Positions 3,277 through 35,642 of a stretch of DNA of 64,000 bases are shown here, piece after piece. Numbering within the stretch: position 1 is the first letter of the stretch; every line of letters begins with the position of its first letter. The translations under genes were made by a program, and so were the position numbers. Location of the stretch: positions 4,732 to 68,731 of the forward strand of contig DIFQ01000139.1 of NCBI GenBank assembly GCA_002419215.1. The letters are read 5' to 3'. The stretch is from Syntrophaceae bacterium UBA5744. GTDB taxonomy: Bacteria; Desulfobacterota; Syntrophia; Syntrophales; UBA2192. Under the pieces are notes generated by a model that was not told the DNA's origin, made no database searches, and saw nothing but the letters and a program-made list of their open reading frames with translations.

Positions 3277-3360
3277 GAGTGTCTAAGTGTCTGAGTGTCT
3301 AAGTGCTTCAATAAAAGGAACCGGTTCCGTCCCTATACCCGGGCCCCTATACCCGATACC

Positions 3361-5406: not shown

Positions 5407-6704
5407 TCACAGTTCATTATACTTGATCTCCCCCCCCACGATCGTGAGGACCGCCTTGGCCGGGAGCTTCCAGCCGTTGAAGGGCGAGTTGCGGCTCTTC
5501 GAACGAAATGTCCCGATGTCCACCGTCCAGGACTTCCTGGGGTCGATGACGGTCACGTCGGCATCGGCGCCCTTCTTGAGCGTTCCCTTCGGGATCCGCA
5601 GAACGCGGGCGGCATTCACCGTCATCCGGGCGATCAGCTCCGACGGGGTCAGCAAACCCTCCTCGACGAGCTTCCAGCAAAGCCCGAGCGAGGTCTCAAG
5701 GCCGACCATGCCGTTTGCGGCATACTCGAACTCCACCTCCTTCTCGATGGCCGAGTGGGGCGCGTGGTCGCTGGCAATGACCTCGATCGTGCCGTCGCGG
5801 AGCCCCGCCCGGACGGCGGCCACGTCCTCGGCGCTGCGAAGCGGCGGGTTCACCTTGTAGGCAGTCTCGAAGCCCTTGAGGGCCTCGTCGTTCAGCAGCA
5901 GGTAATGGGGAGCCGTCTCGGCCGTCACCTTCACGCCGCGCTCCCGGGCCTGCCGGATGATGCGCACGGCGCCGGCGGAGCTGACGTGGCAGATGTGGAC
6001 GGAGGTGCCCACGTACTCGGCGATCAGGATGTCGCGCATCACCATGATGTCCTCGGAGATCGTGGGGATCCCGGGCATGCCCAGTTCCGTCGAGGCGAGC
6101 CCTTCGTTCATGAGGCCCCCCTTCGAGAGCTGCAGCTCCTCGCAGTGCGCGACGATGGGCAGTTCGAGGGAATGGGCGTATTCCAGGGCGCGTTTCATGA
6201 GCCCCGCGTGCATGACGGGCTTGCCGTCATCGGAGAAGCCCGCCGCGCCTGCCTCCTTGAGATCGCCGAACTCGGCGAGGTTCTTCCCCTCGGAGCCCAT
6301 GCTGACTGCGGCAATCGGGTAGACGTTGGCAAGATTGGCCTTCTGGGCCTGCCTCAGGATGAACTCCGTCACGGAGCGGTTGTCGTTCACGGGGTTGGTG
6401 TTGGGCATGCAGGCAATCGAGGTGAAGCCGCCCGCCACGGCAGCCGCGCACCCCGACTCGACGGTTTCCTTGTATTCGTAACCGGGCTCCCGCAGGTGCG
6501 TGTGGATGTCGATGAGCCCGGGGACGACGAGCTTTCCCTTGAGATCCAGGACCGTGATTCCCGGGTCCTTTTTCTTTCCCTTTCCGTCGTCGCCGAGGTT
6601 GCGGCCCACCGCGGCGATCCTGCCGCCCTCGATGAGGATGTCCAGGATGTCGTCGATCTTCTGGGAGGGGTCGATCACCCTTCCGCCTCTGAGCAGCGTT
6701 GTCA

Positions 6705-32653: not shown

Positions 32654-32661
32654 GGTCCGTG

Positions 32662-32847
32662 TGTCATTGCGAGTCGAGCCTCGCGAGACGTGGCAATCCA
32701 CGATTGAGAGGGTTATCGATGGAAGAAACACCCTCACCCTCTCCGCGGGAGAGGGCAGGGTGAGGGGGAAGTCCACTTCCTTTCGACGCAGAGGGCTCCT
32801 TCCACATTTCCCCTCTCCCCTTCGCGGGAGAGGGCAGGGTGAGGGGG
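32662..32847. repeat. Cluster of short palindromic repeats after the acyl-CoA synthetase gene
   Basis: CATTGCGAG ... CTCGCGAG ... GGCAATCC (32665-32700). Then two copies of CCCTCTCC-GCG-GGAGAGGGCAGGGTGAGGGGG (32729-32768 and 32810-32847). Confidence 0.7.
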
Positions 32848-32939
32848 AATAATCCCCTTCCTATGGTGTTTGTCCTGCGGTGCCCTTCCGTCGAGGGGCA
32901 CCGACTTGTTTGAACCGTAACGACAGACGGTGTGCGACC

Positions 32940-33287: not shown

Positions 33288-33394
33288 GCGGTATTTGCGA
33301 ATGCGACACCCGGGGCAGCGATGACCATTGAGGTTGGACTGCGTCTTTTTGCTGTTGGTGTGGGCATTTTGAACTTTTAAAGGGTGGATCATTC

Positions 33395-34530
33395 AGGTAT
33401 AGAATAGGTATAGAATAGGGACGGGTATGAATATATTACTTTATATGGATTATACCCTGTGATAGGAAGTGCCCGATGCCACGAAGAGCCCGCATAGACG
33501 CATCCGGTGCGTTGCATCACATCATTTGCCGGGGAATCGAGCGGCGGAAGATATTTCGGGATGATGCTGATCGCGATGCGTTCATCCGGCGTCTCGGGAC
33601 TGTTCTGAAAGAGACCCAGAGCTTCTGTTACGCCTGGGCCTTGATTCCCAACCACTTTCATCTGCTGCTAAGGACCGGCAGCACGCCGATCGCAACCGTT
33701 ATGCAGCGGCTGCTCAGCGGATATGCCGGAGCATACAATCGCAGACATCGACGGATCGGTCAACTTTTTCATAACCGCTACAAGTCCATCCTCTGCCAGG
33801 AGGATCTGTACCTGCTGGAGTTGGTGCGTTATATCCATTTAAACCCGCTGCGGGCCAAGCTCGTCGAGACCCTGGATCAACTGGATTCCTACGCGTACGG
33901 CGGCCACAGTGCTCTCATGGGTAAATGCTCGAATGACTGGCAGGAGGTCGACAGGATTCTTAGCCTCTTTGGAAGGCGACTATTGGAATCACGCAAAACC
34001 TATCACGCCTTCGTTGAAAAGGGGGTTGACATGGGCAGGCGCCCGGAGCTGACCGGTGGCGGATTGATCCGTAGCATGGGCGGTTGGCGTGCGGTGACGT
34101 CGCTTCGGAAGCTCAAAGAGCACCTGAAAGGCGATGAGCGCATATTGGGGGACAGCGATTTTGTGGCAGCGGTTTTGGAAGCCCAGCATGAAAGCCTGGA
34201 GCGACGCTACCGGCTCAAGGCCAAGGGCTTTGACATCGAGAAAGTGATACAGCGGACGGCCGAGATTATCGGGCTGGATGCCGGGCAGATCCGGACACCT
34301 TGCAAAGAGCCACTGCGGGTTCAGGCCAGAAGCCTCGTCTGCTACTGGGCAGTTCGGGAATTGGGCCTGACCACGGTGGCGGTTTCAAAGGAGTTGGGCA
34401 TATGTCAGGCGGCGGTGACAAAGGCGGTTGCCCGGGGCAAAGTGTTCGCGGAGAAGCGCGGGCTCAACCTGCAGGAATAAGTGATTAATTCATACCCGTC
34501 CCTATTTATCCGGCGTCCCTATTTATCCGG
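33395..34530 (+). mobile_element. Transposase unit: tandem 11-mers, 19-bp left IR, transposase gene, 19-bp right IR, tandem 17-mers
   Basis: AGGTATAGAAT x2 (33395-33416). AATAGGGACGGGTATGAAT (33414-33432) has its exact reverse complement at 34488-34506. CGTCCCTATTTATCCGG x2 (34497-34530). Confidence 0.6.
33476..34480 (+). CDS. IS200-like / REP-associated tyrosine transposase (Y1 HUH) with a C-terminal DnaA-C-like HTH
   Basis: HUH motif PNHFHLLL and catalytic-Tyr region LFHNRYKS. The C-terminal segment LVCYWAVRELGLTTVAVSKELGICQAAVTKAV is HTH-like. The gene is flanked by 19-bp inverted repeats. Confidence 0.85.
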   Translation: MPRRARIDASGALHHIICRGIERRKIFRDDADRDAFIRRLGTVLKETQSFCYAWALIPNHFHLLLRTGSTPIATVMQRLLSGYAGAYNRRHRRIGQLFHNRYKSILCQEDLYLLELVRYIHLNPLRAKLVETLDQLDSYAYGGHSALMGKCSNDWQEVDRILSLFGRRLLESRKTYHAFVEKGVDMGRRPELTGGGLIRSMGGWRAVTSLRKLKEHLKGDERILGDSDFVAAVLEAQHESLERRYRLKAKGFDIEKVIQRTAEIIGLDAGQIRTPCKEPLRVQARSLVCYWAVRELGLTTVAVSKELGICQAAVTKAVARGKVFAEKRGLNLQE

Positions 34531-34688
34531 TTAGATTTTTACGGTCGCCCCCCGCGCGGGGGCGTGGATGGCATGTGCGAGAACAACGGATTCGTAATCA
34601 GCAGTTCTATGGCACTGTGCACTGTGTTGGTGGGGGGAAACGTTGAATCCAGGCCTGCGCGGGGATGGAAAGAGGACGTCAGGGCGGG

Positions 34689-35087
34689 TCAGGGGATGAG
34701 GCGGAAGCCCTGTTCCTTGAAATGACCGTCAAAAGTGAATGAAGAGTCGATCCCGTTGCGTCGCATGATATCGAAACTGATGCAGTCAACCAGACTTAGC
34801 CTTCGCCGGGATGCGACAAGCAGGGCGGCCATTCCCAGCCGATGGAGATCATCTGTGACGTATTCCACGTGAAGGATGGGGACAATCGCGTCCTCGAACG
34901 CCCGCACGGCTTCCAGCCCGAGGCGGCTCTGCAGGAGCGCAACCGTTTCCACGAGCACGTAGCTGCTCGTCACCGCCAACGTTCCGCCCTCCAGGATTTC
35001 GGTCCATCCATTACGCGCCCTGGCATGGTTGTCGTCGTCTCGATCGAGAAGTGCGTAAAAGGCCGACGTATCGACAAAGACCCTCAT
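34689..35087 (-). CDS. vapC: PIN-domain toxin VapC
   Basis: 132 aa. MRVFVDTSAFYAL carries the first acidic residue and other conserved Asp/Glu are present. Overlaps the upstream antitoxin gene by 4 nt. Confidence 0.85.
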   Translation of the reverse strand: MRVFVDTSAFYALLDRDDDNHARARNGWTEILEGGTLAVTSSYVLVETVALLQSRLGLEAVRAFEDAIVPILHVEYVTDDLHRLGMAALLVASRRRLSLVDCISFDIMRRNGIDSSFTFDGHFKEQGFRLIP

Positions 35088-35332
35088 CTGTCGTACGCCT
35101 CCACGAGGTAGGCATCGTGGCGCTTCGAGACGTCGCGCTTTCCGGATTTGAATTTTCCCATGACGTCCATGGCCCGTTTCTGCTTCTCGTCGATGGGCAT
35201 CATGATGCCCGAACGGATCACTCCGTCGACGGCACGCCGGATGACTTCCGCAATGGATTCTCCGCGGGCGGCTGCGATTTCCTTCAGCGCGCGGGCCTGC
35301 TCTTCCGTCAGTTGAATCTGTGTTCTGACCAT
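35084..35332 (-). CDS. vapB: Ribbon-helix-helix (CopG/VapB-like) antitoxin
   Basis: Start at the ATG at 35332 (MVRTQIQLTEEQARALKEIA is an RHH beta-strand plus helix pattern). 82 aa, coupled to vapC. Confidence 0.75.
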   Translation of the reverse strand: MVRTQIQLTEEQARALKEIAAARGESIAEVIRRAVDGVIRSGIMMPIDEKQKRAMDVMGKFKSGKRDVSKRHDAYLVEAYDR

Positions 35333-35342
35333 GTTAGCCTCT

Positions 35343-35371
35343 ATGATTACTATTATGATGTAATGATTACA
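35343..35371 (-). promoter_or_regulatory. Candidate VapB operator (repeated GTAATCAT word, one copy inside a 13-nt palindrome)
   Basis: Immediately upstream of the vapB start. On the plus strand ATGATTAC occurs at 35343-35350 and 35363-35370. TGTAATGATTACA (35359-35371) is a perfect palindrome. Confidence 0.4.
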
Positions 35372-35642
35372 CATCGGGGACCTTCCGTCAAGGCATTTTG
35401 AGGCTTTGCCGTTGCCTCCTCGCGGTCAGGCAAAGGACTGGATCCCCGCCGTCGCGAGGATGACATAGTTGAGGGCGCGGGGATGACATTAGGCCTGCTG
35501 CTCTTTGACTGAGCGACAAGATGCCCATTGAAGCTTTACAATTGAAATGAGTCGCAAGCAGGAAATTGAATTTGAGGGGATATGGAGCCTCTCATGCTTT
35601 GTCTTATTCGTCTTTAGCGAAACGGGCACCCCATGTCCTCCA

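Follow-up and report, generated by a model that had tools for sequence, protein, structure and literature searches.

Genes resembling those of REP (repetitive extragenic palindrome)-associated tyrosine transposases (RAYTs) are not always accompanied by REPs. Di Nocera, De Gregorio and Rocco (2013, BMC Genomics 14:522, PMC3733652) defined TIRYTs, or "TIRtrons", as RAYT-like genes flanked by terminal inverted repeats (TIRs). According to the passages of that paper drawn on here, an outer motif, GGGGWSAS, is common to many TIRs ("some" or "the majority"), and TIRs are mostly not dispersed and sometimes form small families of dimers. Most TIRYTs were later placed in TnpA-REP subclass 2.1 by Quentin, Siguier, Chandler and Fichant (2018, BMC Genomics 19:475, PMC6006769), whose subgroup 2.1.2, in the passages used, carries Bac_DnaA_C, HTH_23 or HTH_28 tails and has no REP-like sequences nearby. 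Here we examine a 64,000-nt stretch of contig DIFQ01000139.1 from Syntrophaceae bacterium UBA5744 (hereafter the window), and in it the segment 33395-34530. This segment is very probably one TIRtron, a 1.1-kb single-gene unit in which a TIRYT gene is enclosed by terminal inverted repeats private to the element and by short tips that are partly iterated. Publications of 2013 and 2018 already describe this architecture, and the classification is unchanged by the present results.

A single open reading frame (ORF) occupies the segment and is bracketed by AATAGGGACGGGTATGAAT and its exact reverse complement, a 19-nt inverted repeat that gave two matches in the native order of letters and in none of 100 shuffles (Table 1). 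Outside the arms lie exact tandem repeats, AGGTATAGAAT twice on the left with an 11-nt unit and CGTCCCTATTTATCCGG twice on the right with a 17-nt unit, and the two tips match each other imperfectly in inverted orientation (GGTATAGAAT before AGGGACG on the left, CCGGATAAAT before AGGGACG in the reverse complement of the right). A first-pass annotation of the window, made from the letters alone, had reported both the exact 19-bp repeats around the gene and the doubled words on each flank, and both observations were confirmed. The distance of the start codon from the terminal GGG is the same in several relatives of the window element's clade. The repeat arms are not self-complementary; local subterminal hairpins are absent from the ends and the leader, where the DNA folds no better than shuffles (z -0.5 to 0.6). 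An Rfam search returned no match, and a TATCAC...GTGATA pairing noticed in close homologues was unsupported for the window copy.

Table 1. Coordinates of the element in the window and of related repeat doublets elsewhere in the same genome
Feature	Position	Strand	Remarks
Left tip, iterated	33395..33416	+	AGGTATAGAAT x2, directly abutting the AGGGACG core
Left terminal inverted repeat	33414..33441	+	19 nt exact (33414-33432), 28 nt at 89% identity; core AGGGACGGGTATGAAT
Leader, left repeat to ATG	33442..33475	+	34 nt; terminal GGG to ATG, 58 nt
TIRYT gene	33476..34480	+	334 amino acids and stop; Y1/HUH domain at residues ~14-145, conserved middle, helix-turn-helix at ~242-328
HUH motif codons (H60-F61-H62)	33653..33661	+	H60 and H62 invariant in 30 family members
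Codon of putative catalytic tyrosine Y102 (in RYK)	33779..33781	+	at least 90% conserved in family alignments
DnaA-domain-IV-like helix-turn-helix region, residues ~242-328	34199..34459	+	matches by profile, Pfam and Foldseek
Right terminal inverted repeat	34479..34506	-	2-nt overlap with stop codon; exact 19 nt at 34488-34506
Right end, iterated	34497..34530	+	CGTCCCT plus tip ATTTATCCGG, x2; second partial repeat terminus outside the full one
C100-type doublets	C100:17145-17222, C17:2615-2697, C93:10054-10177		solo copy at C18:17173

The same layout was found throughout the family. The source genome, a 3.47-Mb metagenome-assembled genome that is 88% complete, holds five full-length paralogues at 30-39% identity and one truncated copy, and every full-length copy is bracketed by its own exact inverted repeat of 14-29 nt with outer ends reading GGGGTCAGG or GGGGACG. 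These five paralogues together with 20 copies from 40 relatives gave 25 of 25 loci with the repeat layout. Among named genomes, nearly all of them Thermodesulfobacteriota, it was present at 49 of 66 usable loci, an inverted repeat being called at a score of at least 14 against a shuffle maximum of 9. Across all of these sets the repeats start with (G)GGGACG or the first of the two ends just given, and in homologues at 77-91% identity the left repeat is kept as GGGGACGGGTATGAAaATATCACTT with sharp boundaries. The family comprises at least 8,000 matches, and many of the metagenomic ones sit on contigs no larger than an element (1.07-1.4 kb).

These features place the locus in the published TIRYT/TIRtron class. 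As in the passages of PMC3733652 drawn on here, a RAYT-like Y1/HUH gene is bracketed at a short, roughly constant distance by TIRs and not by REPs; private repeats are usual, and the small dimer families of some genomes have their counterpart in the C100 and C5 paralogues of this genome. Three paralogues (C24, C5 and C27, reading GGGGTCAG) match the published motif GGGGWSAS at 8 of 8 positions, whereas the clade of the window element consistently ends in (G)GGGACG, with G at position 7 where the consensus has A. The protein is long, has a C-terminal domain of the Bac_DnaA_C/HTH_23/HTH_28 kind and no REP-like sequences near its gene, and its repeat is unlike a DnaA box, all as in the passages of PMC6006769 on subclass 2.1.2; judged by predicted domain content, nothing there contradicts membership of that subclass. 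The first-pass annotation had taken inverted copies of a short motif around the gene as the signature of a REP-associated transposase, a claim that did not hold, as private inverted repeats are the signature of TIRYTs and TIRtrons.

The predicted protein matches Y1_Tnp (Pfam, E 9e-9) and, weakly for a single sequence, Bac_DnaA_C (Pfam, E 0.03, residues 254-317). Its HUH histidines lie in PNHFHLLL (residues 58-65) and the tyrosine in HNRYKS (residues 99-104); the match to the Y1 transposase fold makes Y102 the putative catalytic residue. The middle of the protein is conserved as well (GGGLIRSxGGW and DERILGDxDF). A single-sequence search of PDB returned no match, and matches were obtained with a family profile and a fold search. 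The profile aligned with E. coli TnpAREP (4er8) via residues 35-145, and with the DnaA domain IV structures 2hcb/1l8q (E 7e-5) and 1j1v via residues 242-328. Across the 30 members of the family alignment Pfam reported Y1_Tnp in all 30, Bac_DnaA_C in 17, HTH_23 in six and HTH_28 in one. An AlphaFold model (predicted local distance difference test 77.7) had 4er8 as its best Foldseek match, followed by the ISDra2, IS608 and IS200 TnpA structures, and its C-terminus fits the DNA-binding domain of M. tuberculosis DnaA, 3pvp (template-modelling score 0.70, root-mean-square deviation 2.8 Å). Pfam, profile and fold searches thereby bear out the earlier description of a Y1/HUH enzyme with a DnaA-C-like helix-turn-helix (HTH). 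The gene is under purifying selection, with dN/dS of 0.11-0.28 against close homologues, and its catalytic motifs are intact.

A relation to DnaA itself was considered and rejected. Domain IV alone aligns (residues 242-328), an AAA+ ATPase domain III is absent, and so is the signature with which domain IV reads TTATNCACA boxes, the DnaA "DHTTV" stretch being replaced by CQAAVTK. The two copies of TTATCCGG in the tip were likewise rejected as DnaA boxes, since they are not conserved in the homologues at 77-91% identity and the base-reading signature of DnaA is replaced. The TTATCC of the right tip is not conserved in homologues either.

The catalytic fold and the absence of target duplications are shared with IS200/IS605 elements such as IS608 and ISDra2, and an ordinary insertion sequence of that group, moving by hairpin-guided peel-and-paste, would account for the Y1_Tnp domain and for the lack of a target-site duplication at any copy. 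At 334 amino acids in three regions, with an added HTH, the protein is nevertheless far from the ~130-150 amino acids of TnpA; the element has true terminal inverted repeats instead of dissimilar subterminal hairpins, its ends fold no better than shuffles, and no tnpB partner is present. We regard this explanation as extremely unlikely, in agreement with the first-pass annotation, which had set the element apart from classical IS200/IS605; neither end forms a subterminal hairpin. The closest solved fold, with HUH motif and tyrosine, is that of E. coli TnpAREP (4er8; Ton-Hoang 2012, PMC3333891; Bertels and Rainey 2011, PMC3116915). The window protein is unlike that enzyme in being twice as long and in its HTH tail, and its score against NCBIfam REP_Tyr_transpos, 62.7 bits, is below the equivalog cut-off of 80. 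In contrast to RAYT/REP systems, its repeat is neither a GTAG-tagged palindrome nor dispersed, and the distribution of the gene is patchy. Nor does the gene show the vertical single-locus inheritance of canonical RAYTs, being absent from the syntenic site of one relative (G008), with its nearest relatives spread over other families.

Recent mobility is cleanly documented in a cultured strain, Desulfosarcina alkanivorans PL12, whose complete genome has four copies of a same-clade member that agree in every letter over exactly 1,109 bp and differ entirely in their flanks. Identical tandem copies occur in two further large genomes. Homologues at 77-91% identity to the window element lie in four different gene contexts, and among 40 genomes of the order the nearest relatives, at only 52-56% identity, come from other families as often as from the same genus. 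Within the genus an acetyl-CoA synthetase gene and ORF135 are conserved and the content downstream of them is variable: in G008 a 160-bp spacer free of any element separates ORF135 from vapC/vapB, and the syntenic sites of G005 and G017 contain other cassettes with other small genes. The window copy seems to have reached its variable site, rich in toxin-antitoxin genes, fairly recently. No target-site duplication was seen at any copy, and a search of 72,556 PLSDB plasmid records gave partial matches in 13 and a full-length match in none.

Such contexts bear on the alternative of a domesticated, immobile gene, whose repeats would serve as operators, or as a device pairing the 5' and 3' ends of the mRNA, for a nuclease or DNA-binding protein retained by the host. 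Against it, the window copy is missing from the G008 site, other cassettes occupy that spot in G005 and G017, homologues at 77-91% identity are found in unrelated contexts, same-clade members are multi-copy and identical in PL12, and G017 has solo right-end relics of the window element type. We consider domestication unlikely for these reasons, even though the copy here is single with a private repeat, the C100 paralogue described below has a constant upstream neighbour in at least five genomes, strong purifying selection and co-varying arms, and about half of the relatives have a TTGAC -35-like box where the left repeat ends on its inner side, which would allow autoregulation.

Several observations weigh against reading the window locus as a mobile TIRtron. 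The element is single, and its repeat has no other copy in its own genome; present-day mobility is for that reason unproven, and because the assembly is incomplete, unassembled copies may exist. The 160-bp spacer of G008 does not align with the spacers of the window, so that an exact empty-site junction is not derivable. The outer end of the window copy reads AGGGACGG, which agrees with the published GGGGWSAS in 6 of 8 positions and is the one exception to its fit with the features of the class that were compared. Binding by TIRYTs, and the site and strand of their cleavage, would follow IS608, ISDra2 and TnpAREP by analogy, and because the ends have no local hairpin, the classical hairpin-guided Y1 mechanism would need pairing between the arms or another mode of recognition.

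Some further observations concern the sites and remnants of these elements. The PL12 copies (L128-L131; NZ_AP021874.1, 6.88-6.92 Mb) lie within 40 kb, with a solo right end beside the fourth. The spot downstream of ORF135 (window 33288-35400) is a variable cassette site, with vapBC and the TIRtron here and vapBC alone in G008, and close TIRtron homologues also adjoin PIN/RHH or VapB genes (L045 and L046). In G017, two solo right-end relics (L134; C15:4651-4716 and 6093-6150) share 93-94% identity with window 34440-34504, which comprises the final 40 nt of the ORF and the right repeat; each is preceded by a remnant of a C24-type right end, and the pair brackets a 1.4-kb segment with other small genes. 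In the source genome, at C27:5211-6520, a truncated copy consisting of the left end and 115 codons is followed directly by a full copy, near-identical to it and beginning with its own left end, and tandem pairs of this kind were also seen in G040, G043 and G044.

The doubled words on the flanks of the window element are iterated element tips, a feature of the whole family. In PL12 the identical block begins 8-10 nt outside GGGAC, and the tips therefore belong to the element; by comparison with these copies, some 8-10 nt outside GGGAC at the window tips would likewise be part of the mobile unit. The PL12 tips are iterated differently from copy to copy (GGGAAAGTTA twice, CTAAGGTTT two to three times), and in G043 three growing partial left ends are stacked outside the full one. 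At 64 loci, 23 of 128 flanks contained an additional same-orientation terminal core within 30 nt outside the repeat; the controls gave 2 of 128 for the opposite orientation and, 150 nt away, 3-4 of 128 (Fisher p about 1e-5). The left 11-mer and right 17-mer of the window, each present twice, fit the family pattern in which the tip, or the tip and the terminal 7 nt, is repeated outside the full end. Two models fit such iteration, self-targeted insertion followed by recombination and abortive re-initiation.

The inner part of the repeats has a structure of its own. An exact direct pair of 5-mers 8 nt apart was found within it at 24 of 64 loci against 1.8 expected; the window copy shows the pair weakly, and a relative with clear half-sites at this spacing is L072 (TTAACTTATTAACTT). 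Half-sites so spaced would suit a dimeric HTH. A TTGAC(A) -35-like box stands at the inner edge of the left repeat, at a fixed 22-nt offset from the terminal GGG, in 12 of 64 loci, among them L066, L072 and L095, and TTGAC occurs anywhere in the leader at 30 of 64 loci against 5 of 64 controls, which suggests a promoter overlapped by the repeat in these relatives. The window copy has no TTGAC box; a promoter and terminator scan of it gave nothing above chance, with no convincing promoter in the leader.

Among the paralogues, that of C100 (gene at C100:6522-7577, 38% identity to the window protein, 29-nt repeat) resembles one partner of a RAYT-REPIN pair. Gene-less inverted doublets of its repeat, two copies separated by 16-63 nt, are present at three further sites (Table 1); the C5 and C27 repeat types have one doublet each and solo copies. 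Genomes of the genus that carry a C100-type gene have 8-21 matches to the repeat pattern, mostly doublets of the genome's own variant, whereas those without one have 0-7 more degenerate matches (Mann-Whitney p 4e-4, a value not corrected for kinship). The C100-type gene has the same upstream neighbour in at least five genomes and dN/dS of 0.13-0.23, and its arms are matched within each genome and diverge between genomes. As in RAYT-REPIN systems, then, the gene is single, syntenic and under purifying selection, and inverted doublets track both its presence and its sequence variant.

The first-pass annotation had proposed something different, that the window enzyme or its paralogues disperse at least the GGGTATA-type members of the heptamer hairpin arrays common in this genome, and the C100 pair concerns a locus and sequences other than those of that proposal. 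Its general idea, that enzymes of this group spread short hairpin-forming DNA, stands for the C100 paralogue with doublets of its own terminal repeat and fails for the heptamer arrays. In its full form the proposal makes the window gene a canonical RAYT, with its own or its paralogues' flanking motifs seeding the periodic-arm hairpin elements. TnpAREP is indeed the closest solved structure, the Joint Genome Institute annotates homologues as RayT, and paralogues have dispersed gene-less doublets of their own repeats. The words that suggested the idea are also real: the array vocabulary is overlapped by GGTATAG in the left tip and by CCGTCCCTAT at 3327, and CCGTCCCTATACCC was confirmed at 3327-3340. 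Such overlap is nevertheless not above chance, either for the 10-mer or for the shared 7-mers: 53% of simulations produced a match like the 10-mer at 3327, and the array vocabulary is broad enough to give a random 50-mer 1.7 matches on average.

The proposal had itself named two findings that would count against it, a 19-mer confined to this locus and hairpin arrays abundant in related genomes without such a transposase, and both were made. With two mismatches allowed, the 19-mer occurs in the 3.47-Mb genome at the two arms and nowhere else, and the arms are not palindromic REPs. In the genus, G015 (99% complete) has 293 array matches, G003 (86% complete) 203 and G001 31 with no Y1_Tnp gene found, whereas G008 has two Y1 genes and no arrays. 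Genomes with two to six Y1 genes have none or very few. Over 18 genomes of the genus, matches to GGGTATM arrays and to Y1_Tnp were uncorrelated (Spearman rho 0.05), and other families of the order have up to six Y1 genes and essentially no arrays (a single match in one genome). The source genome itself contains ~994 period-7/8 arrays, where a shuffled version gave 15; 34 unit types are found in five or more arrays each, against five to seven Y1 genes. These results refute the seeding view in its own terms; the sub-threshold NCBIfam score also counts against it, and we hold it to be highly improbable. The TIRtron of the window has no satellite repeats in its own genome and no connection to the heptamer hairpin arrays.

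A second repeat lies close by and is unrelated to that of the TIRtron. It is a dispersed intergenic repeat with units of ~47-60 nt, found at window 32660-32862 just after the acetyl-CoA synthetase gene, and has hundreds of matches at 85-98% identity in all genomes of the genus.

A mechanism can be sketched for the TIRtron from these features. The protein would bind its own repeats, probably through the HTH on their A/T-rich inner part, which in relatives may consist of the two direct half-sites 8 nt apart. Single-stranded DNA would then probably be cut close to the (G)GGGACG tips and rejoined by the HUH/tyrosine centre, so that the unit, or gene-less repeat doublets, would move without target duplication; we infer these steps of binding, cutting and rejoining. 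It is possible, at somewhat short of an even chance in our estimation, that TIRtrons are active transposons with a distinctive end chemistry, marked by terminal stutter, half-sites and a co-varying population of doublets. By terminal stutter we mean partial copies of the tip and repeat terminus stacked outside the element in the same orientation. The passages of PMC3733652 and PMC6006769 drawn on here contain no description of such stutter (iterated tips lying 8-10 nt beyond the motif), of paired direct half-sites at an 8-nt spacing, of identical multi-copy elements in one complete genome, or of co-varying gene-less doublets like those kept by one TIRYT lineage in this Syntrophales genus.

These findings dispose of an attractive but mistaken account of the ~1,000 heptamer and octamer arrays of this genome, for which no HUH transposase is responsible, and explain the mini-repeats flanking the gene as iterated tips. 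They also add to the element class a well-documented clade of Thermodesulfobacteriota with sharply defined mobile copies. If the observations on stutter, half-sites and doublets hold, self-targeted or abortive replicative insertion would have left the stutters as its footprints, and a first biochemical test of a TIRYT would have its natural substrates in the doublets. The genus offers a natural experiment, with many doublets in genomes that have the C100-type gene and few in those that do not, which could guide the biochemistry of TIRYTs.

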